This document shows, in pieces, positions 10,680 through 44,088 of a stretch of 64,000 bases of DNA (position 1 is the first letter of the stretch; each line of letters opens with the position of its first letter). The stretch comes from Anaerolineae bacterium (GTDB taxonomy: Bacteria; Chloroflexota; Anaerolineae; Aggregatilineales; Phototrophicaceae). The DNA lies in the NCBI GenBank assembly GCA_034422695.1, contig DAOUJM010000014.1, positions 303,482 through 367,481 of the forward strand, in the 5' to 3' direction. Both the position numbers and the translations under genes were made by a program. Below the pieces are notes generated by a model that saw nothing but the letters and a program-made list of their open reading frames with translations, was not told the DNA's origin and made no database searches.

Positions 10680-11384
10680 ATGAACGGAGAAACGGTGGCC
10701 CCGGTTTCGATCGAGGCCCTGACACCGGGGATACAGGTTCACGGGACGGTCAGGCGCCTGGAGTTGTTTGGCGCCTTCGTGGACATCGGCGCGGGACGTG
10801 ACGCCCTGTTGCACATATCCCAGCTGAACCGGCCCAACGTACGCAACGTGGAAGACGTCGTCCAGGTCGGGCAGGAAATCGACGTCTACGTGCTGAAGGT
10901 GGATGCAGCGGCCGGGCGCATCGCCCTTTCCATGACGAAACCGGCCGCCGTCAACTGGGATGACTTGCGGGAAGGCGCCAGCGTTCGCGGCAAGATTGTG
11001 CGCATCGAATCCTATGGCGTCTTTGTGGACATCGGCGCCGAACGACCTGGCATGGTCCATGTCTCCGAACTGACCAACGGCTTCGTCCGTTCTCCTTCCG
11101 ACGTCGTCAGCATCGGCGATGAAGTAGAGGCGCGTGTTCTCAAGGTCAACCGGGGCAAACGGCAGATCGACCTTTCCATGAAGCCTGACGAGGAAGCGGC
11201 GAGTACGGTCGAGCTCGATGATGAGGACGAGGAAGAGATGCCGACGGCGATGGAACTGGCCTTGCGGCGCGCCATGGAGCGAAGCGCCGGCGACGGTTCG
11301 GCCCGACGCACGAAATCGCGCAAACAGCAGCGTCGCCAGCAGGAAGACATCATCGCGCGCACCCTGCGCGAACACCAGACCTGA
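10680..11384 (+). CDS. S1 RNA-binding domain protein (two S1 modules, charged C-terminal tail)
   Basis: Two repeats of the pattern GxVxxxxxFGAFVDIG...HxSxL, followed by an acidic then a basic tail. Confidence 0.8.
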   Translation: MNGETVAPVSIEALTPGIQVHGTVRRLELFGAFVDIGAGRDALLHISQLNRPNVRNVEDVVQVGQEIDVYVLKVDAAAGRIALSMTKPAAVNWDDLREGASVRGKIVRIESYGVFVDIGAERPGMVHVSELTNGFVRSPSDVVSIGDEVEARVLKVNRGKRQIDLSMKPDEEAASTVELDDEDEEEMPTAMELALRRAMERSAGDGSARRTKSRKQQRRQQEDIIARTLREHQT

Positions 11385-11406
11385 GGCACAGGACGCCAGC
11401 GCGCGT

Positions 11407-11856
11407 TCAGTCGGCCAGTAGCAGCCGCGCCCTTGCGGCGGAAACCACAAACATCAGGGTCATCACCAGTTCGTGGGCGAGGCACCACAGGCACCAGGCC
11501 TGCAGGATATTGGCCTGCACGTGAATCAGCCACAGTGAAAACAGAAACCCGAAGAGGCTGAGGCCGACAACCAGCAAGGGGCCATAATTGCGCAGAATGG
11601 CGACGCGCGTTTCAAGCAGGAGCAGGGCCCCGAAGGTCAGCCAGGCGAGCAACCCCGGCCAGACGACGTCGATGCCGGCCACGCGTGACCATACGCTGTT
11701 CTGCACGACTTCACAGTTAATGGCTCCACCTGCCGCGCAGACCAGGTCGCTGTCGCCAAGCTTCACCCAGGCCAGATAGCCGGTGATGAGCAGTCCCGCG
11801 ACGACCAGCAGCAAACTGGCCCGTTTCAGCCTGTCCGGCATGGTTAGTCCACTCAC
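11407..11856 (-). CDS. Vitamin K epoxide reductase (VKOR) family membrane protein
   Basis: Hydrophobic segments, a loop Cys pair (VCAAGGAINC) and a CLWC redox motif. Its start overlaps the moeA stop by 4 nt. Confidence 0.75.
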   Translation of the reverse strand: MSGLTMPDRLKRASLLLVVAGLLITGYLAWVKLGDSDLVCAAGGAINCEVVQNSVWSRVAGIDVVWPGLLAWLTFGALLLLETRVAILRNYGPLLVVGLSLFGFLFSLWLIHVQANILQAWCLWCLAHELVMTLMFVVSAARARLLLAD

Positions 11857-13082
11857 TTGAGCGGCAGAACGTCCAGCTCGCTGCCGGCGGGCACGAAGGT
11901 CACGTTTTCCGGCACGACCAGCAAGCCGTCAGCCAGCACCATTGAAAACAGCGCTCCCGAACTTTGCGTGCCGGTGCTGCGCGCCAGCAAACGACCGTCC
12001 GCCCGCTCCAGGCTGACGCGCAGATAGCTGCGCCGGCCATCGGAGCGCAGGTCCTCGCAGACGATGGCGCGTATACTCTCGCCCTGCTGCGCCTCGCCCG
12101 CCAGTCGCTGCAGGGCGGGGCGCACGAAAATGCGGAAGGTCACCATGGCGGACACCGGATTGCCCGGCAGGCCGAAGAAGGGGATCCCCTGAACGTGGCC
12201 CCAGGCGAGCGGTTTCCCCGGTCGCATGTTTACGCGCCAGAAGTTAAGTTCTCCCAGTTCTTCCAGCACGTCGCGGACCAGATCGTGAGCGCCGACGGAC
12301 ACGCCGGCCGTGCTGATGATGAGGTCCGGTTGCTGCTGCAGGGCGTCCTGGAACATGGCGCGCACCTGTTCGAGGTCATCGCGGGCGATGGGCCGGCGCA
12401 GCGGCGTGCCGCCCAGTTCGCCGACCATGCCCTGAACCGTGAAACTGTTGACGTCGTGAATCTGGCCGGGCGCCAGGGGCTGGTCCACTTCCACCAGTTC
12501 GTCGCCGCTGCTGACAATGGCGACACGTGGCCGACGCCGGACCCTGACCTGCGCCTGGCCCAGCGCTGCCAGCATCCCCAGATGCTGCGGACGCAGGCGC
12601 GTGCCGGCGGCCAGTACCCGCTGACCGGCGCGCACGTTTTCGCCCACAGGTCGAACGCTGTCCCCGGGCGCCACTTCTTTCATCACGGCGACCGGCGTCG
12701 CCGGCGCCCCGGGCTCCTCACGCGACCAGTCCGCGTCCGTCTCCTCGACCGGGACGACGGCGTCCGCGCCGGCCGGCATGGGCGCCCCGGTCATGATTCT
12801 GGCGGCCTGTCCCGGCTTCAGGGCCCGCTGCGGGACAGCGCCGGCGGGGATGTCCATGACGACTTCCAGCTGGACCGGTCGCTGGCTGTCGGCGCCGGAC
12901 AGGTCCGCCGCGCGCAGGGCGAAACCATCCATGCTGGAGTTGGCAAAGGGGGGCAGGCTGGTCGTTGCGATCACATCTTCAGCCAGCACGCGGCCCAGAC
13001 AGTCTTCCAGCCTGGCGCTTTCCGCCGGCAAGGGCTGTAACTCCCCCAGTATACGTTGCAGTGCCTCGTCGACGCCGAGCAT
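11853..13082 (-). CDS. moeA: Molybdopterin molybdotransferase MoeA
   Basis: MLGVDEAL...SLPPFANSSMDGFALRA N-terminus. Length 409 aa from the ATG at 13082. The upstream 320 aa of the 730-aa ORF are antisense to relA and are rejected. Confidence 0.85.
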   Translation of the reverse strand: MLGVDEALQRILGELQPLPAESARLEDCLGRVLAEDVIATTSLPPFANSSMDGFALRAADLSGADSQRPVQLEVVMDIPAGAVPQRALKPGQAARIMTGAPMPAGADAVVPVEETDADWSREEPGAPATPVAVMKEVAPGDSVRPVGENVRAGQRVLAAGTRLRPQHLGMLAALGQAQVRVRRRPRVAIVSSGDELVEVDQPLAPGQIHDVNSFTVQGMVGELGGTPLRRPIARDDLEQVRAMFQDALQQQPDLIISTAGVSVGAHDLVRDVLEELGELNFWRVNMRPGKPLAWGHVQGIPFFGLPGNPVSAMVTFRIFVRPALQRLAGEAQQGESIRAIVCEDLRSDGRRSYLRVSLERADGRLLARSTGTQSSGALFSMVLADGLLVVPENVTFVPAGSELDVLPLK

Positions 13083-30924: not shown

Positions 30925-32907
30925 AAGTTCCACCACGATCAGACGATGCCCGTGCGCATCCCCCGCGAGCGCGCCGGCGCCGTTACTGGCAAGCGGCGCG
31001 CGGTGCCACAGGTAGTCCGTCCGCCATTGCTCATCACCCGCTGACGTCGTCCACCGGATCTCTCCCGGCAGCGTCTCGAACGGGTCCAGAAAGTCTGCCG
31101 CGCGCAGGGGCAACAACAACTGGTCATCCGGCGCGCCGGTGAATGAGGCAGCAAGCGCCAGCAATGTCGGTTCCTGCTGGTTGTGCAGCGCACCGATGAG
31201 TGTATTCATCGCGCCGATTTGCAATTCCAGATTGCGCGGCGTCTGGCCGGGCCAGTAGTTGTACAGGGTCAGCGTCTCGTCCTGAACTTCGATGGTTGCC
31301 CGTTGCAGGCCGCCCTGGCGGCCATCGCCAACGGCAAGCCAGCCGCCGGCGTCCTGCAGGTCTGCCCGGGCCAGCAAGGCCAGGCCGTTGATGCCTTCGG
31401 CTGTCGGGAAGAAGTGGTGTTGCATGCCAAGCCGGCGCGCCAGCCAGTGCGCCTGGTCGACCCAGTAGCTGGCGCTGCGGCCGGCATCGACGTTTTGCAA
31501 CATGACGATGTCGGCGCCGCTTGCCAGAATTGTCTGCGCAATCTGTTCCAGATCCCGCTGCTGGTGACGGTTTGCGCCGGCATTGACGTTCCAGCTTGCC
31601 ACGCGCAGGGTGGCGCCGGCACGCTGCGCGGGCATATCAGGCGGTCTGACGAAAGCGATGCCCAGGATGACGGCGGCGATGGCGATCAGGTAATTCCAGG
31701 GGCCGTTGCCGACGGTCTCACGCGACCAGGCGACACGATGTCGATTGCGGGTCATGGTCAGGGACGTGAGGACGACGGCCAGCAGCATGATGAGCGCGCC
31801 CATGCCCTGCAGGCCCGTCAACATCCCCTGCAAGAGATTGCCGTTGGCCCCGGGTGCGGGACTGGCAACCGTGTAGAGATCGAGCACCAGCAGCAGGGCA
31901 GCGACCAGCAGCGCCGGCAACAGGGCGACTCCACTCAGGTTCTGGTCCTCTTCTTCCTGCGGCCGTATCAACCACCACCACATCAGACTGACGGCGAACT
32001 GCAGCAGCACCAGGGCAAGGGCCGCGGGCAAATCCTCCAGTCGCAGGCCGACCACCAGCAACAGGGCCGTGATGGCCATCCACAGCCAGCCCCGTATGCC
32101 GCCGTAAAAGGCCTGCAGCAAATTGCGGGCAACCATGCGGACGACAGGCAGGAGCGGCAGCAGGGTTGCCGCCAGGATCAGGGGGGTGACCAGCGCCAGC
32201 GGGGCGCCACTGCGGGCTGCGATGGCGTTGGGTGTGGCCAGCAGGGCCAGTTGCAGAAAGAGCAGGGCGCCGATCCCCACGGCTCCGCGCACGGTGATCA
32301 GGCCCTGCTGCGCCGTAACTTGCGCCAGAACGGGTTCCTGAAAACGGCGCGCCAGCAGCACCGTGACCACAATGAGCGCTGCCGAAAGCAGCAACTGCAG
32401 CCCGTCCCAGGCCGCAGTCCAGGAGATATCCAGGGTGTTCCCGCCCGCCCGCACCAGCAGGTCCGCGGCGAAGCCGAACAGCATCAGTTGCGGAAAGTGC
32501 ATCACCCGGCGTTGCAGCAGCAAGACGACACAGGCCATTCCGGCGCCGAGCACGGCGGCGCTGGCATACGTTTCAGGGAAATCGCCGCCAAGGGCCGGCA
32601 ACGCGCGCGCCAGCGCCAGAAAACTGACGCACAGTGGCAGCGCCTGGCGACTGCGGGCGTAGCGATGGGCCAGCAGGGGCAGCAGCAGCATAAGCGCCAG
32701 AAAGGCGACCCCGGCGCCAAACTGGCCGGCGTTGACGTTTTCTGCCGGGATCCCTGCGCCTTCCGCTTCCATGGCGCCGACCAGGCTGGCGGCAGCGGCG
32801 TGATTGAACAACAGGCCCGGCAGACGCCGCAGGGCCTGCACAAGGAACAGACCGACCAGCGCAACCTCGATTGTTTGCAGCAGGGATAGCAGCACCTTGC
32901 GCGACAT
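30901..32907 (-). CDS. Polytopic membrane protein with C-terminal endonuclease/exonuclease/phosphatase (EEP) domain
   Basis: The N-terminal ~420 aa are strongly hydrophobic. The C-terminal LRVASWNVNAG...DIVMLQNVD region is EEP-like. Confidence 0.6.
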   Translation of the reverse strand: MSRKVLLSLLQTIEVALVGLFLVQALRRLPGLLFNHAAAASLVGAMEAEGAGIPAENVNAGQFGAGVAFLALMLLLPLLAHRYARSRQALPLCVSFLALARALPALGGDFPETYASAAVLGAGMACVVLLLQRRVMHFPQLMLFGFAADLLVRAGGNTLDISWTAAWDGLQLLLSAALIVVTVLLARRFQEPVLAQVTAQQGLITVRGAVGIGALLFLQLALLATPNAIAARSGAPLALVTPLILAATLLPLLPVVRMVARNLLQAFYGGIRGWLWMAITALLLVVGLRLEDLPAALALVLLQFAVSLMWWWLIRPQEEEDQNLSGVALLPALLVAALLLVLDLYTVASPAPGANGNLLQGMLTGLQGMGALIMLLAVVLTSLTMTRNRHRVAWSRETVGNGPWNYLIAIAAVILGIAFVRPPDMPAQRAGATLRVASWNVNAGANRHQQRDLEQIAQTILASGADIVMLQNVDAGRSASYWVDQAHWLARRLGMQHHFFPTAEGINGLALLARADLQDAGGWLAVGDGRQGGLQRATIEVQDETLTLYNYWPGQTPRNLELQIGAMNTLIGALHNQQEPTLLALAASFTGAPDDQLLLPLRAADFLDPFETLPGEIRWTTSAGDEQWRTDYLWHRAPLASNGAGALAGDAHGHRLIVVELSLAAAAA

Positions 32908-32989
32908 CTTCGCCCCCGGCAGACAGCGATATGCAGGGAGTCTACAGCGGCACTATAATTACGCAAATCCGGCAGGTGGCGAGGCAGGG

Positions 32990-34969
32990 ATGGAAACGGT
33001 CGACCTGATTCTGTCAGGCGGAACTGTCGTCACGATGGACGACGTTTTTTCGCTGTATCCGGATGGCGCCGTTGCCATTCGGGATGAACAGATTGTCGCG
33101 GTGGGGTCCAGAGAGACCATTCTCGACAGCTGTCACGCGGCCAGGGTACTGGACTGCAGCGGCCAGTACGTCCTGCCTGGCCTGGTCAATGCCCACACCC
33201 ACGTGCCCATGACGCTGCTGCGCGGCCTGGCCGATGACCTGCGTCTGGACGTGTGGCTGATGGGTTACGTGATGCCGACGGAACGGGAGTTCGTCAACCC
33301 GGAGTTCTGCCGCCTCGGCGCGCGCCTGGCCTGTGCCGAGCAAATCCGCAGCGGGATCACCACCTTTGCGGACATGTATTACTTCGAGGAAGAGATCGCA
33401 AGGGTCACCGCCGCTGCCGGCATGCGCGCCGTGCTGGGGCAGACGGTGCTGCGCTTTCCAACGCCCGACGCCGAGACCTACGAGGACAGTCTGGCGCGCG
33501 CGCGACGCTTCATAGAAGACTGGCGCGGTCACGAGTTGATCACGCCGGCCGTTGCGCCGCACGCGCCCTATTCCAGCACGCGGGAGCTGCTGGAGAAATG
33601 CAGCGCGCTGGCCATCGAATGCGACGTGCCGCTGCTCATTCATATCGCCGAGACGCGCCAGGAACTGGAGGACAGCCTGAAGCAGCACGGACGACGGGTG
33701 GTCGAGCAGGTCGCCGACGTCGGACTCTTGCGGGCAAAGGTGCTGGCCGCCCACTGCGTGCACATCAATCAGGCCGAGATGCACAGTCTGAACGCCCATG
33801 ACTGCACTGTCGCCCACTGTCCCACCAGCAATCTCAAGCTGGCCAGCGGCATCGCGCCGGTCAGCGACATGCTGGCTGCCGGCCTGACCGTGGGCATTGG
33901 CACGGACGGGCCCGCCAGCAACAACGACCTGGACATGCTGGAGGAGGTGCGTCTGGCGGCGATTCTGGCCAAGACCAGCGCCAATGATCCGACCACGCTG
34001 CCGGCGCGTCAGGCGCTGCTGATGGCGACCCGTCAGGGCGCCGAAGCCCTGTTCCTGGGCGAACGCACCGGAAGTCTGGAGCCGGGCAAGCTGGCAGACC
34101 TGATCGTCGTTGACGCCCGGCCAACCCACAACATGCCGCACTTCCGGCGCAGCGAGGATGCGGTCTATTCGCAGATCGTGTATGCCGCAAAGAGCACGGA
34201 CGTGATCCACGTCATGTGCCACGGTCGCTGGTTGATGCGCGACCGACGTCTGCTCACCCTGCAAGAGGAGGCGTTGATTGATCAGGCACAAAATCTGGCG
34301 ACGCACATCGATGCCTTCCTGCGCGCCAACACCCGCGACGTGCTGTCCCGGCTTCTGACGGTGACCCAGGGCATGGAGCGCGGCGAAAGCTTCGAGGTGC
34401 AGGCCAAGGTGGTGCTGCCTGACAGGCAGGCGCTGGAACAGCTGCTGCGCAGCGACGAGGTCGAGGTCCTGAAGCAGGCCCATTACCGCCAGTACGACAC
34501 CTGGTTCAGCTTCGAGGGCGAGGCCGACAGTCGCCTGCGCTACCGGGAAGACGATGCGCTGGATGAAGATGGCGGCGTTGAGTGGACGCGCAGTCGCCTG
34601 ACCCTGACGCGCCTCAACAAGGTGGACACCCACGGTCCGGCGGTCCGACTGTCGCATTCGCGCTTCTTCGCCCGGGCGGACAGGCCGCTGCGCTTCTATC
34701 GCGAGTATTTCCGCCCGGCTGCCGAGCGGACCCTGGAAAAGGACCGGCGTCGCTGGCACATTCGCTTCCGCGACGTCCCGTTCTACGTCAACGTGGACCG
34801 CTTTATCAGCCCTGCCAGTGATGAAACCTACCTGGAACTGAAGAGCCGCACCTGGTCGGCGGAGGATGCCGACGACAAGGCCGCTCACATTCGTGAGATG
34901 CTGGGCATTCTTGGGGCCGTTGCAGAGGACATGGTGCTGGCCGACTATCACGAGATGATCGGCAACTGA
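32990..34969 (+). CDS. Amidohydrolase (MtaD/SAH-MTA deaminase-like) fused to a C-terminal CYTH-like domain
   Basis: LVNAHTHVPMT, HIAET and GTDGPASNN motifs. The C-terminal ~215 aa carry CYTH-like features (FEVQAKV, QYDTWF, LRYRED, YVNVDRF...YLELKSR). ATG at 32990. Confidence 0.7.
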   Translation: METVDLILSGGTVVTMDDVFSLYPDGAVAIRDEQIVAVGSRETILDSCHAARVLDCSGQYVLPGLVNAHTHVPMTLLRGLADDLRLDVWLMGYVMPTEREFVNPEFCRLGARLACAEQIRSGITTFADMYYFEEEIARVTAAAGMRAVLGQTVLRFPTPDAETYEDSLARARRFIEDWRGHELITPAVAPHAPYSSTRELLEKCSALAIECDVPLLIHIAETRQELEDSLKQHGRRVVEQVADVGLLRAKVLAAHCVHINQAEMHSLNAHDCTVAHCPTSNLKLASGIAPVSDMLAAGLTVGIGTDGPASNNDLDMLEEVRLAAILAKTSANDPTTLPARQALLMATRQGAEALFLGERTGSLEPGKLADLIVVDARPTHNMPHFRRSEDAVYSQIVYAAKSTDVIHVMCHGRWLMRDRRLLTLQEEALIDQAQNLATHIDAFLRANTRDVLSRLLTVTQGMERGESFEVQAKVVLPDRQALEQLLRSDEVEVLKQAHYRQYDTWFSFEGEADSRLRYREDDALDEDGGVEWTRSRLTLTRLNKVDTHGPAVRLSHSRFFARADRPLRFYREYFRPAAERTLEKDRRRWHIRFRDVPFYVNVDRFISPASDETYLELKSRTWSAEDADDKAAHIREMLGILGAVAEDMVLADYHEMIGN

Positions 34970-40226: not shown

Positions 40227-41270
40227 TCAGGCCCTCAACTTGCCGCGAAAACGGCAGTAGGTCGCATAGTCGATTTCGCTGCGCCGGGCGATGTAGTCGC
40301 GCGTGGCCGGCGCCCTGCCGCGGACGTCCCGGACCCGTTCCGTGACCTCCAGGTCGAAGGCGTCCGAGCCGGCGCCGCTGCCGTAGCTGACCATCAGGAT
40401 GCGGTCGCCGGGGTCGGCGATGTCCAGCACGGCGGTCAGCCCCAGCATGCAGGAGCCGGAATAGGTGTTGCCGATATCGCCGGCCAGCAGTCCCGCGCTG
40501 ACCTGGTCGGCGCCGAACCCCAGGGCGCGGGCCGCCCGTTGCGGGAACTTGACGTTGGGCTGGTGAAAGACCGCCCAGGCGTAATCGGCAGCCGTTGAAC
40601 GCATTTCTTCCATGAGGGCGCGCCCGGCGCTGATGCTGTGATTGAAGTAGGCCGGTTCGCCGGTGAAGCGGTCGCCGTGGCTGGGGTAGGGCTGACCTTC
40701 GCGACGCCAGAAATCGGGCGTGTCGGTGACGAAGCTGGCGCTGCCCAGAAAGCGGGCGCAGGCTTCCTGCGCCGGGCCCAGCAGGAAGGCCGCGCCGCCG
40801 GACGCAGCGGTGTATTCCAGGTCGTCACCGGGCCGGCCCTGGGCGGTGTCCATGCCGATGGCCAGGGTATAGCGTCCCATGCCGCTGCCGATGATGCCGA
40901 TGGAGGCCTGCACGGCTTCCGTGCCGGCCTTGCAGGCGAATTCAAGGTCGGCGGCCATGACGGCGGGCGTCGCGCCCACGCTTTCGGCGACGACGGTGCT
41001 GCTGGGCTTGACGGCGTAGGGGTGACTTTCGCTGCCGACCCAGACGGCGCGGACGTCGGCCGGATCCACCCTGGCGCGGGCGATGGCGTTGCGCGCGGCC
41101 TCGATGGACATGGTGATGACGTCCTCGTCCAGGCCGGCGACGGCCTTTTCGCGCACCGGGCTGCCGCCCCTGCCCTGCGTCCAGATGCGCGCTATTTCGC
41201 TGCCGGGCAGGCGGTAACGCGGGACGTAGGCGCCATAGCCGACGATGCCGACCTGGCTCACCGGTGACAT
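40227..41270 (-). CDS. Hydroxymethylglutaryl-CoA synthase, archaeal type
   Basis: [16 protein letters not shown]-terminus, [11 protein letters not shown] and catalytic Cys context [12 protein letters not shown] at 41270 has an AGGAG RBS. An alternative start exists at 41318. Confidence 0.8.
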
Positions 41271-41318
41271 GGCAACTCCTTCGACATGGATGCCGCTTTT
41301 GGTCACGGTACGCTCCAT

Positions 41319-42870
41319 ATGTAGTTATCTGTTTGCAATTACTTGAGTTGGAAAATATCCATGGTTGAAGGTGCTTGTCCCCCGCTCCGGGGAACAAATG
41401 GAGGAAGATTTATTTTCTTCCCGGCAAGCAGATCTTCAACACTTACACCTTGTATTACAGGATATGTGCCGAGACTGTCACTAAATATCTCTCGATTCCT
41501 GTTGTTTTCTACTGTTTGCATGAAACGTCCGAAACAAACCAGAATGCCAGCTTTTACTCCATGCTTTTTTACAGTGTCATAGAGTCTTCCGACTGCATCT
41601 GGAGTCACCGAACCACTTTTTACCTGCACAATTGCGTACTCTGGTTTGGAAACCTCTCCAATGTTTATGGGATAGAATTCAATGACACCATCAACTCCTG
41701 CATCCGGGCCTCTTTCTCCGGGGTCACGGTACATCCCGTGAGCTCCAATGAAACCACAGGCCCATTTTTCAAACTCAAATCTGTCCCGGTTTGCCAGTTT
41801 CAAAGCATCTTCAACTGACGAGGGAGTACCGAATACCTGAATATGTGAATTATCCAGTGTGGGAATCCACGAAAGTATGCGCTCACGAACAAGACCTGTG
41901 GCAAATGAAGAAACGTCAATCCCTATCCAGCGGCGTTTTAGGTATTCGGCCGCATGCAGGGTCGTGCCACAGCCACAAAATGGGTCCAGCACCAAGTCTC
42001 CTTCATTCGAAGACGCAAGAATGATATGTCGTAATAGTGAGAGAGGTTTTTGCGTCGGGTATCCAAGTCGTTCTCTGGCATTTGGACGGATTGGTGGCAA
42101 CACAATCCAGTCCTGAGGCAACTTTCCACGCTCATCAAGCTTTACTTCCTCGAACTGAGAAGCATGTGCTGCATACTCCTCTCTTCCTTGAGATGCTTCT
42201 GAGTATGGTTGTCGCACATCATCAGGGTTAAACGTCCATGCATCACTTTTTGAATAAAACAAAAGGACATCATGTGTGCGGGCATAATATGACTTTGTAT
42301 TCCTTGGCCACGAGTAGCACCAAACCAGTTCGTTATGAAAAAATCGGTAACCGAAAATGCCGTCCATCAGCGACTTCAAGTAATGACTTGCTGTTGGGTC
42401 GCAGTGAAGATAGATGCTCCCGGAGTCTTTAAGTACCCGTTTCATCGGCTCCAATCGAGCAGCCATATTTACAAGATAGGCACCAAGATTGTTTTTGCTC
42501 GCGCGTCCACCAGATATCTCCAACGAGTACTCAACAAGATTTCCCAGATGTCTGGATTGAGGCCTTCTTTTAAATCTTTCAAGCAAAGTCTCTTCTTTGT
42601 CACCCCACTCCCAGGTATCCTTAAACGCCTCTACTGGTCTAAGTGTTTTGTCCTTTCCCTTGAAGGGAAGGTTGTAAGTGCTGTTTGAGTTGAATGGTGG
42701 ATCCAAATAAACCAGATCTACAGATCCATCCGGCATAATGTCTGGGTCGCTTAGAATATTCAGGCAGTCGTCAGCATAGAGAATGCGATTCATTCCAACT
42801 CCAGGGAAATTGATTTGACCAACTCTATAGCATATTGCATTCCAATGTTGCCATTGGCAACCATCTTTTC
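41319..42870. other. AT-rich compositional island (putative horizontally acquired DNA), one gene long
   Basis: There is an abrupt drop in GC. My hand count for 42790-42869 is 31 G+C of 80, and the rest looks low-40s % by eye, against mid-60s % flanks. I saw no integrase, tRNA or terminal repeats. Confidence 0.75.
41339..42793 (-). CDS. Fusion protein: beta-class N6-adenine/N4-cytosine DNA methyltransferase (aa 1 to ~335) plus C-terminal Mrr-like PD-(D/E)xK restriction endonuclease domain (aa ~336-484)
   Basis: Motif IV DPPF (aa 31-34) precedes motif I DPFCGCGTT, with YPTQKP in between. The C-terminal FEFEKW...DAGVDGVIEF...AIVQVKSG matches the Mrr_cat pattern (D...QxK). Confidence 0.8.
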   Translation of the reverse strand: MNRILYADDCLNILSDPDIMPDGSVDLVYLDPPFNSNSTYNLPFKGKDKTLRPVEAFKDTWEWGDKEETLLERFKRRPQSRHLGNLVEYSLEISGGRASKNNLGAYLVNMAARLEPMKRVLKDSGSIYLHCDPTASHYLKSLMDGIFGYRFFHNELVWCYSWPRNTKSYYARTHDVLLFYSKSDAWTFNPDDVRQPYSEASQGREEYAAHASQFEEVKLDERGKLPQDWIVLPPIRPNARERLGYPTQKPLSLLRHIILASSNEGDLVLDPFCGCGTTLHAAEYLKRRWIGIDVSSFATGLVRERILSWIPTLDNSHIQVFGTPSSVEDALKLANRDRFEFEKWACGFIGAHGMYRDPGERGPDAGVDGVIEFYPINIGEVSKPEYAIVQVKSGSVTPDAVGRLYDTVKKHGVKAGILVCFGRFMQTVENNRNREIFSDSLGTYPVIQGVSVEDLLAGKKINLPPFVPRSGGQAPSTMDIFQLK

Positions 42871-44088
42871 GGCGATTTCGCTCGCCCGTTCCGCCGGCGC
42901 GCCGGCGGCCAGCGCCAGTTGACGCGCGTGCAGGCTCATGTGGCCGCGTTGAATGCCTTCCGCGGCCAGGGCGCGCAGGGCGGCGAAATTCTGCGCCAGA
43001 CCGACGGCAGCCATGACTTCGGCCAGTTCCCGCGCCTGCGTGACCTTCATGATTTTCAGGGCGACGGCGGCCAGCGGGTGCACCCGGGTGGCGCCGCCAA
43101 CAGTGCCCACCGCCAGCGGCAACTCGAGCGAACCATGCAGGACGTTGTCGCCGTCCAGGCGCCAGCGCGACAGGCTGGCATAGCGGCCGTCGCGCGCGGC
43201 CCAGGCGTGGGCGCCGGCCTCAAGGGCGCGCCAGTCGTTGCCGGTGGCGACGGCCACGGCGTCGATGCCGTTCATGATGCCCTTGTTGTGCGTCGCCGCG
43301 CGCTGCGGATCAATCTCCGCCAGGGCCGTCGCCGCCACGATGCGCTGCGCGACTTCCAGGCCGGCCCGGCCCCCGTCATCCAGCTCACTGGCCGGCAAGT
43401 GACAGTTGGCGCGGGCCAGACGACGGTTCGCCAGGTTGCTGAGGATGCGCAGGTTGGCGCGGCCACCACTGAGCGCTTCCAGACGCGGCGCCAGTCCTTC
43501 GCAGATGCTGTTGACCAGGTTGGCACCCATGGCGTCGCGACAATCGATGACGATATTCACGACCAACATGGGGCCGACGGCGCTGTGCCGTAGCGGGCGC
43601 AACTCCAGCTCCCGCGCGCCGCCACCGCGCGCCACGAGGCTGCCGGCGAATCGGTTGGCCAGCTCCAGCAATTCATGCCGCGCCCGGTGAATGGCGGCCC
43701 GGGCGGTTTCGATTTCCGGTACGTTGATCAACTGCACCTGGCCGGTCATCAGGGGTTCATCGCTGCCGGCGTAAAAGCCGCCACTGCGGCGAAACAGGCG
43801 CGCGGCATTTCCCAGGGCCGCCACGACCGAGGGCTCCTCGATGGCCAGCGGCACCAGCAACTCGCGCCCGTTGACGATGAAATTCGGCGCAACGCCGAGG
43901 GGCAGGCCGTAGACGCCGATTGCGTTTTCGATCATCTGGCCGGCCAGACGCGGGTCCAGGCCGCTGCCCCCGGCCAGCAACGCCTGTTCGGCTTCGGTCA
44001 GTCCACTGAGTTGCGCCACTCGCGCCAGGCGCTCCTGCGGGGTGAGGCGATGAAGGCCGGGCAGGCGCGACGTGTATACTTCGTTCAT
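42790..44088 (-). CDS. mvaA: Hydroxymethylglutaryl-CoA reductase, class II
   Basis: ENAIGVYGLPLGVAPNF, LAIEEPSVVAA and GIQRGHMSLHARQ motifs. 432 aa. Confidence 0.9.
   Translation of the reverse strand: MNEVYTSRLPGLHRLTPQERLARVAQLSGLTEAEQALLAGGSGLDPRLAGQMIENAIGVYGLPLGVAPNFIVNGRELLVPLAIEEPSVVAALGNAARLFRRSGGFYAGSDEPLMTGQVQLINVPEIETARAAIHRARHELLELANRFAGSLVARGGGARELELRPLRHSAVGPMLVVNIVIDCRDAMGANLVNSICEGLAPRLEALSGGRANLRILSNLANRRLARANCHLPASELDDGGRAGLEVAQRIVAATALAEIDPQRAATHNKGIMNGIDAVAVATGNDWRALEAGAHAWAARDGRYASLSRWRLDGDNVLHGSLELPLAVGTVGGATRVHPLAAVALKIMKVTQARELAEVMAAVGLAQNFAALRALAAEGIQRGHMSLHARQLALAAGAPAERASEIAEKMVANGNIGMQYAIELVKSISLELE

Follow-up and report, generated by a model that had tools for sequence, protein, structure and literature searches.

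A methyltransferase–Mrr nuclease fusion gene between two mevalonate-pathway genes of an Anaerolineae bacterium: a candidate motor-less single-chain restriction–modification enzyme

Introduction

What does a DNA methyltransferase fused to an Mrr-like nuclease do when it stands alone between two genes of the mevalonate pathway? The question is raised by a stretch of 64,000 nucleotides (nt) from an Anaerolineae bacterium (Chloroflexota, order Aggregatilineales, family Phototrophicaceae; GenBank assembly GCA_034422695.1, contig DAOUJM010000014.1, positions 303,482 to 367,481 of the forward strand; hereafter the window, whose numbering is used throughout), in which a preliminary description had singled out an open reading frame (ORF) of 484 amino acids (aa). 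We find that the fusion gene is intact and the feature real, and that the methyltransferase–Mrr fusion is common, not rare, forming a large, uncharacterised family. Judged from sequence and predicted structure, it is best described as a putative single-chain restriction–modification (R-M) design with an N-terminal beta-class methyltransferase, a C-terminal Mrr-type nuclease and no motor. We give somewhat better than even odds (about 0.55) to the reading that the protein is a self-contained, motor-less single-polypeptide R-M enzyme of uncharacterised type, with selfish or defence behaviour.

The fusion protein and its two halves

According to the Pfam scan, the 484-aa protein consists of a beta-class N6/N4 DNA methyltransferase followed by a C-terminal Mrr_cat nuclease domain. 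The gene and the parts of its product are as follows.

41339..42793, minus strand: complete methyltransferase–nuclease fusion ORF, 484 aa, stop codon included
41849..42793, minus strand: beta-class N6/N4 DNA methyltransferase half, residues 1-315 (PF01555, Foldseek and PDB sequence matches)
42692..42703, minus strand: methyltransferase motif IV, DPPF, residues 31-34, family-invariant
42074..42313, minus strand: hypervariable segment, residues ~161-240, the presumed target-recognition region, with the lowest conservation in the family
41960..41986, minus strand: methyltransferase motif I, the AdoMet-binding loop DPFCGCGTT, residues 270-278, family-invariant
41414..41830, minus strand: Mrr-type PD-QxK nuclease domain, residues ~322-460 (PF04471 and fold matches)
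41762..41779, minus strand: nuclease motif I, FEFEKW, residues 339-344 (E340/E342), in helix 338-349, equivalent to E38 of LlaGI
41687..41704, minus strand: nuclease motif II, D364-A-G-V-D368-G, with the extra Asp four residues upstream, counterparts of LlaGI D74/D78
41618..41626, minus strand: nuclease motif III, Q390-V-K392, counterparts of LlaGI Q92/K94

The preliminary description had read the protein as a beta-class methyltransferase plus an Mrr_cat domain with a D...QxK pattern, and the ORF, the Pfam matches and the motif read-out agree with it. In the profile search that it proposed as a check, both families exceed their gathering scores: PF01555 (N6_N4_Mtase) covers residues 25-296 with an E-value of 4e-47 (161.4 bits, cut-off 26.7), and PF04471 (Mrr_cat) covers residues 337-427 (29.9 bits, cut-off 21). 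The DPPF motif IV does lie ahead of the FCGCGTT motif I, as had been noticed, and the order of motif IV, variable segment and motif I is the circularly permuted arrangement of the beta class. Because Asp holds the first position of DPPF, the sequence suggests adenine-N6 as the methylation target. The variable region, described as short, is indeed ~60-80 aa shorter than in phage homologs. The whole-chain AlphaFold model (from a 40-sequence alignment, pTM 0.83) superposes on M.BceJIV, M.RsrI, CcrM and M.MboIIA (Foldseek E-values 1e-15 to 5e-18), and Type III Mod subunits also match the methyltransferase half, both by fold comparison and by PDB sequence search. NCBIfam and PADLOC models report a methyltransferase of the Type II or Type III-Mod kind only and recognise no nuclease, and domain scans of the 484-aa protein found no helicase or ATPase domain.

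The motifs of the Mrr family were defined in the LlaGI paper (PMC2790908): motif I is (F)E in the first helix, motif II is the catalytic Asp, with a hydrophobic residue just before it and, linked via Gly, a second Asp four residues upstream that is specific to the family, and motif III is Q-x-K. In LlaGI, activity is lost in the mutants D74A, D78A and K94A and partly kept in E38A and Q92A (PMC2790908). The window protein has every one of the defining positions (F339-E340-F-E342, D364-A-G-V-D368 and Q390-V-K392). When the nuclease domain is modelled in isolation (AF2, pLDDT 84), its secondary structure runs H-H-E-E-E-H-E-H (H, helix; E, strand), which contains the alpha-beta-beta-beta-alpha-beta core of restriction endonucleases, at modest similarity. 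Among solved structures, Foldseek matches the isolated domain to the MspJI nuclease domain (probability 0.98, TM score 0.48) and to BamHI (probability 0.91), and a viral structure library yields matches to proteins named 'restriction endonuclease' and 'Mrr domain' (probability 0.99-1.0). Searches of the PDB with the isolated C-terminal domain by sequence and by profile returned nothing meaningful; only the fold comparison gave MspJI and BamHI.

Conservation of the nuclease site

We counted conservation in an alignment of 343 family members covering motifs II and III. D364 is conserved in 337 of them, D368 in all 343 and K392 in 341; the full D-D-K triad is present in 335 (98%), and both Gly residues of D-x-G-x-D-G are effectively invariant. 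Identity within the nuclease set goes down to ~27%. Between the window protein and its 94%-identical relative (locus L001), the ratio of nonsynonymous to synonymous divergence (dN/dS) is 0.046 overall and 0.07 in the nuclease domain. The retained triad argues against nuclease inactivity, and together with the dN/dS value it disfavours the earlier suggestion that the nuclease fold is a mere DNA-reading domain.

The same counts bear on an alternative in which the protein is an orphan methyltransferase, its Mrr-like domain serving as a non-specific DNA-binding or dimerisation module (like the C-terminal domain of CcrM) or as a repair or recombination nickase. The protein would then act in epigenetic marking or in protecting phages from host restriction. 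We regard this alternative as rather unlikely, though it deserves serious consideration. The orphans CcrM and M.BceJIV are among the closest structural relatives of the methyltransferase half, which fits it; a pure binding domain, on the other hand, would have no need of a D-D-K triad that is kept in 98% of a very divergent family.

The preliminary description also saw a puzzle in joining a methyltransferase to an Mrr-type domain, since such domains were taken to be methylation-dependent. This puzzle dissolves: the Mrr-type nuclease of LlaGI acts on unmethylated DNA within a single-chain R-M enzyme (PMC2790908; PMC3874165), and the methyl-dependence of Mrr and MspJI resides in separate reader domains, winged-helix or SRA (PMC12707154). 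A modification-dependent (Type IV-like) nuclease with an attached methyltransferase, attacking foreign-modified or self-methylated DNA in a suicide or abortive response, would accord with the Pfam family name and with the modification-dependence of the classical E. coli Mrr and of MspJI. We consider it very improbable. The Pfam scan of the window protein finds neither an Mrr_N winged helix nor an SRA modified-base reader, the N-terminal 315 aa being methyltransferase; the Mrr catalytic motif itself is not methyl-specific, as LlaGI illustrates; and an enzyme that destroyed the DNA it had itself methylated would kill its host, whereas the gene is stably resident and strongly constrained by purifying selection.

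Size and contexts of the family

Hundreds of full-length relatives are found in bacteria, plasmids and temperate phages. A word-indexed search gave at least 120 of them at 48-94% identity, most with both Pfam domains (among the matches listed), and soil, sediment and sludge metagenomes yielded 80 more at 35-50% identity. A search with the nuclease domain only, against 1.84 billion cluster representatives, returned 571 matches at E <= 1e-3, and in the long proteins among these the domain is always C-terminal, behind a methyltransferase. Full-length members occur in 7 plasmid records and 28 temperate-phage records. The preliminary description was thus half right in offering the fusion as an uncharacterised novelty: we found no published characterisation of the methyltransferase–Mrr architecture in the searchable literature (REBASE not covered), and the rarity it implied gives way to a large family labelled as plain methyltransferases. 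About 6 kb from one family member lies a different single-chain fusion (L087:14646-15521, minus strand; >469 aa), which combines N6_N4_Mtase with HNH.

To see what accompanies family members, we surveyed 121 immediate neighbour ORFs at ~78 loci other than the window. No helicase, ATPase, Res, specificity or restriction endonuclease family recurs among these ORFs. The commonest neighbours are transposases (5) and phage integrases (4), and in two cases a second fusion copy stands in tandem. In one such tandem (L088:5345-6775 and L088:7001-8440, encoding 476 and 479 aa), located between ClpP-region genes and valyl-tRNA synthetase, the two genes may be a two-specificity pair or form a heterodimer.

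In phages, the fusion gene adjoins a CI-like repressor in Marinitoga phage MPV1 and a serine integrase in Streptomyces Likavirus phages, and it lies near a tyrosine integrase and immunity repressor in the mycobacteriophages Dori and Amgine. On a conjugative plasmid of Rhizobium sp. Pop5 (L174, 7088-11509), a dGTP triphosphohydrolase, a WYL-domain protein and a TM0106-family RecB-like nuclease stand beside it, together with an IS256 transposase, so that the cluster resembles a defence island. Lysogeny modules and islands of this sort are the usual places for defence cargo. Both GDxG(I/V)DG and (Q/S)VK are retained in the phage and plasmid copies. Many family members are lower in GC than their flanks (for example, 0.38 vs 0.62 at L093 and 0.40 vs 0.59 at L122). 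Phage-borne methyltransferases are often protective orphans, and the solitary state of the fusion gene also suits the orphan alternative; the phage copies, however, sit in the lysogeny module and not among early lytic genes. An AIPR (abortive-infection-type) gene was seen among ABC-transporter genes (L089:1828-3576, minus strand), a few kb from another family member.

Comparison with known systems

Several known systems share part of this design. Type IIG, IIL and IIC enzymes (MmeI, BpuSI and Eco57I type) resemble the fusion in having restriction, modification and recognition in a single polypeptide, with no motor and no partners. Characterised Type IIG and Type ISP enzymes have an N-terminal nuclease and a gamma-class methyltransferase, as described in PMC3185434 and PMC3874165. 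Compared with the Type IIG/IIL layout (N-terminal nuclease, gamma-class methyltransferase, C-terminal target-recognition domain or TRD), the fusion has the reverse order, a beta-class methyltransferase and an internal variable region, and the preliminary description was correct in calling its domain order and methyltransferase class unlike those of the characterised single-chain enzymes. We detected no sequence relationship between the fusion and the Type IIG/IIL/IIC enzymes. The Type ISP enzymes LlaGI and LlaBIII likewise join a methyltransferase and an Mrr-family nuclease (motif I E, D-x-G-x-D, Q-x-K) in a single chain, but that chain is of ~1,500 aa, with N-terminal nuclease, superfamily 2 (SF2) translocase, gamma-class methyltransferase and TRD, whereas the fusion has 484 aa, no ATPase and a beta-class methyltransferase.

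Type III systems (Mod and Res of EcoP15I and Mbo45V) share with the fusion a beta-class Mod-like methyltransferase, a central recognition region and a PD-(D/E)xK nuclease, and PADLOC MTase_III models and PDB Mod chains match the methyltransferase half of the window protein. Type III systems carry the nuclease, along with a helicase motor, on a subunit of its own, Res, while in the fusion it is directly on the methyltransferase; no Res gene or helicase lies beside the window copy, nor does one recur among the surveyed neighbours. MmeI-type enzymes have been likened to motor-less Type I enzymes (PMC3874165), and the fusion architecture is analogous, in the same way, to a Type III enzyme without the motor.

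E. coli Mrr and MspJI (Type IV) belong to the same PF04471 catalytic family with a PD-QxK site, MspJI being the best match among solved structures; they have a winged-helix or SRA modified-base reader and no methyltransferase, and the fusion protein is without a reader. Other defence systems, too, often use Mrr_cat as their effector module. N6_N4_MTase-Shedu fusions, like the window protein, have a PF01555 methyltransferase and a PD-(D/E)xK-type nuclease in one chain, and have been proposed to be functionally equivalent to Type II R-M (bioRxiv 10.1101/2023.08.10.552793); their nuclease is DUF4263/Shedu in place of Mrr_cat, and the R-M role of both kinds of fusion is putative. The orphan CcrM is, like the fusion, a solitary beta-class methyltransferase with an extra C-terminal domain, and is among the best structural matches of the methyltransferase half. 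The nuclease half of the window protein does not match the CcrM C-terminal domain, and CcrM is a conserved core gene, whereas the fusion gene is polymorphic with variable recognition regions. The conserved presence and specificity across a clade that mark orphan regulatory methyltransferases (CcrM/Dam-like) are therefore not seen here.

Setting of the window copy

The fusion gene is a sharply bounded island of ~45% GC, with a GC content at third codon positions (GC3) of 0.41, in a genome of 68% GC. Its neighbour genes have 64-69% GC and GC3 0.76-0.89, and the surrounding region 65-70% GC. The immediate setting, which we call the reductase–synthase slot, is as follows.

42790..44088, minus strand: HMG-CoA reductase gene, upstream flank (PF00368, 2.8e-107)
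42790..42793, minus strand: ATGA overlap of the HMG-CoA reductase stop and the fusion-gene start, common to all five slot alleles described below
40227..41318, minus strand: HMG-CoA synthase-like gene, downstream flank, starting 20 nt past the fusion-gene stop
41319..42860, no strand: low-GC island (~45% GC, GC3 0.41), extending over the final ~20 codons of the reductase gene upstream

All ten genes that surround the window copy have housekeeping roles: HMG-CoA reductase, the HMG-CoA synthase-like gene, two GFO/IDH/MocA oxidoreductases, a DUF35-type OB protein, H+-pyrophosphatase, UPF0102, MiaA, a polysaccharide deacetylase and an aminotransferase. Genomes in which the slot is empty have identical flanks, so nothing else arrived with the fusion gene. 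Both observations agree with the statement in the preliminary description that there are no partner genes. No promoter-like site above chance was found inside the slot region, and terminator-like matches are at chance level. Given the ATGA overlap, the 20-nt gap to the synthase-like gene, no internal promoter and chance-level terminators, the fusion gene is probably transcribed as part of the mevalonate operon, with translational coupling.

Alleles and history of the reductase–synthase slot

The slot holds the fusion gene in the window and in four other assemblies, making five alleles. The four besides the window allele are listed here.

L001 slot allele: 94% protein identity to the window copy, GC3 0.49
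L002/L003 slot allele: 85% protein identity to the window copy, GC3 0.50
L004/L005 slot allele: 64% protein identity to the window copy, GC3 0.47
L086 slot allele: 65% protein identity to the window copy, GC3 0.75

None of 80 species representatives with the reductase–synthase pair has the fusion gene in the slot; in ~68 of the 80 the slot gap is at most ~250 nt, typically 40-140 nt. Metagenomes, scanned for close relatives, gave no members beyond those of 35-50% identity, and hence no new slot alleles. Two of the 80 representatives, L006 and L025, are the nearest species and have an empty slot; they fall into one tight clade with the occupied L001 and L004, with flanks 88-93% identical at the nucleotide level.

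We followed the history of the L001 copy by sliding-window nucleotide comparison and codon-based distances. Its flanks on both sides group with L006, L025 and L004 at 88-96%, whereas its insert groups with the window (~87%) and is only ~62% identical to that of L004. Similarity switches within the final ~100 nt of the reductase gene, and the L001 reductase tail (…MQYAIELV…) is the window version, unlike the version of its flank relatives. This AT-rich tail (window ~42794-42860, minus strand; the last ~20 codons) is found also in L001 and L002, and not in L004, L006 or L025. Distances tell the same: between L001 and L004 the HMG-CoA synthase gene (HMGS) has a dS of 0.31, yet the fusion gene has a dN of 0.30 with a saturated proportion of synonymous differences (pS), and between the window and L001 the HMGS dS is 0.48 and the fusion-gene dN 0.03. 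In the recognition region (residues 161-240), the proportion of nonsynonymous differences (pN) is 0.005-0.09 within window/L001/L002 and ~0.50 against L004 and L086, i.e. essentially unrelated. The history of the slot alleles thus disagrees with that of the flanks.

The most economical account of these comparisons would be one old insertion, followed by diversification of the alleles in specificity, their exchange by homologous recombination via the flanks, and occasional loss; on the same account, flank recombination would have carried the reductase tail along with the allele. For Type IIG genes, alleles that differ in their recognition domain have been described at one fixed locus (PMC2853133), and the slot alleles resemble them in this respect. 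By this Type IIG pattern, the slot behaves as R-M genes typically do and as a regulatory orphan methyltransferase typically does not, so that the presence/absence polymorphism and the unrelated recognition regions at one locus speak against the orphan alternative.

Four other histories were considered and rejected. A recent one-off insertion does not fit a slot occupied in five assemblies by alleles down to 64% identity, and simple vertical inheritance does not fit L001 and L004, with close flanks but distant inserts, or the empty L006 and L025 of the same clade. Repeated independent insertions were set aside in favour of one ancestral insertion with later exchange, as the ATGA junction is common to all alleles. 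Classical homing was dropped in view of alleles with unrelated recognition regions in one slot and members elsewhere in unrelated sites.

A broader version of the last idea, that the gene is a selfish addiction or homing-like element whose nuclease enforces retention or breaks empty alleles for copying, with any defence incidental, has in our estimation a small chance of being correct. It would explain why the same slot is used in five assemblies with an allele history at odds with the flanks, why a low-GC reductase tail resembling a co-conversion tract is co-transferred, why the gene is translationally coupled inside an essential operon and why its AT-rich composition is not ameliorating. Against this, the unrelated recognition regions leave no single conserved homing site, neither a target-site duplication nor terminal repeats were found to be shared by all five slot alleles, and family members elsewhere occur in many unrelated contexts. 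The common ATGA junction points rather to one ancestral insertion spread by ordinary homologous recombination, and the addiction part overlaps with the R-M reading instead of competing with it.

Other cargo was also observed in the slot in other Anaerolineae, including an MNT/HEPN toxin-antitoxin pair, a DDE transposase with a nucleotidyltransferase, a 578-aa repeat protein, a small membrane protein, and a TIR-like/FGE-domain protein with a Uma2-type nuclease.

L069:4603-5351; L081:205-3679; L058:2200-6001; L084:5110-6001; L057:4178-6001; L075, L079 and L082: slot loci with other cargo

The reductase–synthase slot is therefore a mild insertion hot spot. We note that a run of N and a duplicated synthase 5' end at L001:~2135-2250 are most likely a scaffolding artefact in a metagenome contig.

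Persistent AT-richness

Four of the alleles (window, L001, L002 and L004) have GC3 values of 0.41-0.50, compared with ~0.85 in the host; the L086 allele is at 0.75. The dS between the window and L001 fusion genes is 0.70, at least as large as that of the flank (0.48). Polarised third-position changes number 26 from GC to AT vs 12 from AT to GC in the window lineage, and 19 vs 27 in the L001 lineage, and reveal no drift towards host GC; the outgroup is saturated, which makes these counts indicative only. The alleles may have diverged in a low-GC reservoir, each reaching the slot separately; alternatively, selection may favour AT-richness, e.g. because it limits expression of a toxic enzyme.

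Proposed mechanism

In the motor-less R-M reading, the variable region of the methyltransferase would read a short DNA sequence and methylate there, probably at adenine-N6, marking self. The Mrr-family PD-QxK nuclease would be targeted by the recognition module of the methyltransferase, because the nuclease half has no DNA reader of its own, and would cut near unmethylated sites. Beta-class methyltransferases work as dimers. Since each nuclease domain has one active site, a double-strand break would presumably need a dimer or two bound sites. Its evolutionary role would be that of a mobile gene, defensive or selfish, which has become coupled into an essential mevalonate operon, as the presence/absence pattern, the unrelated recognition regions and the relatives in lysogeny modules and on plasmids suggest; protection against foreign DNA would be part of this role.

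Several observations favour this reading. The conserved D-D-K residues of the family are those whose alanine mutants abolish LlaGI cleavage, the recognition region is hypervariable while the catalytic modules on either side are conserved, and LlaGI provides a precedent for an Mrr-type nuclease cutting unmodified DNA. Alleles with unrelated recognition regions at one locus follow the Type IIG pattern and would be surprising for a housekeeping epigenetic methyltransferase. Purifying selection on both catalytic centres, the fold matches to MspJI and to viral Mrr or endonuclease proteins, the lack of a recurring partner, the phage and plasmid contexts, the empty slot of the nearest species and the disagreement between insert and flank histories point the same way.

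Other observations weigh on the opposite side, some of which also favour an orphan methyltransferase. Every database name for the family is 'DNA methyltransferase', as the orphan alternative would have it. The likeness of the domain to solved nucleases is modest (TM score ~0.48, E-value ~1e-2). Motif I has E in 60% of members and Q in 37%, and motif III has Q in 69% and S in 30%; these variable residues, which the orphan alternative can also claim, are those merely supportive in LlaGI, and nuclease activity may be weak or absent in some subfamilies. PF22722 (NA-iREase1, 'NACHT-associated inactive REase 1') scores 23.1 on the window protein, below its threshold of 27, but in distant members (P0168, P0172, P0175, P0189 and others) it is above threshold and outscores Mrr_cat, which again suits an orphan. 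The 'inactive' label may be ill-fitting for these proteins, given that their D-D-K triad is intact. A phage with an active R-M enzyme must manage self-restriction, and the persistent AT-richness is left unaccounted for by the single-chain R-M model. Finally, DNA cleavage by any family member is something we infer from motifs and fold, as is the targeting of unmethylated DNA.

A more ambitious joint reading has three parts, which we offer tentatively, as possible but more likely to fail than to hold. The family might be a widespread minimal R-M class, a 'Type III without the motor', in which one internal recognition module sets both activities. In this Anaerolineae clade it might persist as a long-lived, multi-allelic presence/absence polymorphism, anchored in an essential mevalonate operon by translational coupling, with specificities exchanged between species via the flanks; this part, too, we hold as doubtful. 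The AT-richness, just as speculatively, might be kept by selection (e.g. throttling a toxic enzyme) and not reflect recent arrival.

Significance

Should the nuclease be active, complete one-gene restriction systems would number in the hundreds to thousands among the genes called 'DNA methyltransferase' in genomes, plasmids and temperate phages. Defence-system finders miss such genes (PADLOC reports a methyltransferase only), and estimates of R-M content would change; the family would also supply enzyme discovery with a compact 484-aa scaffold that has a small recognition region and many natural specificities. The window locus would then be a clean natural case of a toxic or selfish gene settling inside an essential operon. 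With an inactive nuclease, the family would be a striking case of a fully conserved catalytic triad in a non-catalytic role. Catalytic conservation, phage-borne members and allelic dynamics in an essential operon make the family a worthwhile and easily testable target.

Other features of the window

An inverted repeat brackets the fusion gene, its arms lying exactly at the two gene ends.

41342..41353 and 42793-42804, no strand: arms of a 12-nt inverted repeat at both gene ends, the upstream arm spanning the Shine–Dalgarno-like GGAG and the ATG

L001 keeps the repeat (core GAGTTGGAA / TTCCAACTC), L002 has it with a single compensated change, and L004 and L086 lack it. The repeat may be due to chance, to coding constraint or to long-range occlusion of the start site. 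Elsewhere in the window, AT-skew spikes at 11001-12000 and 32001-33000 (0.22 and 0.31) stand well above the rest.

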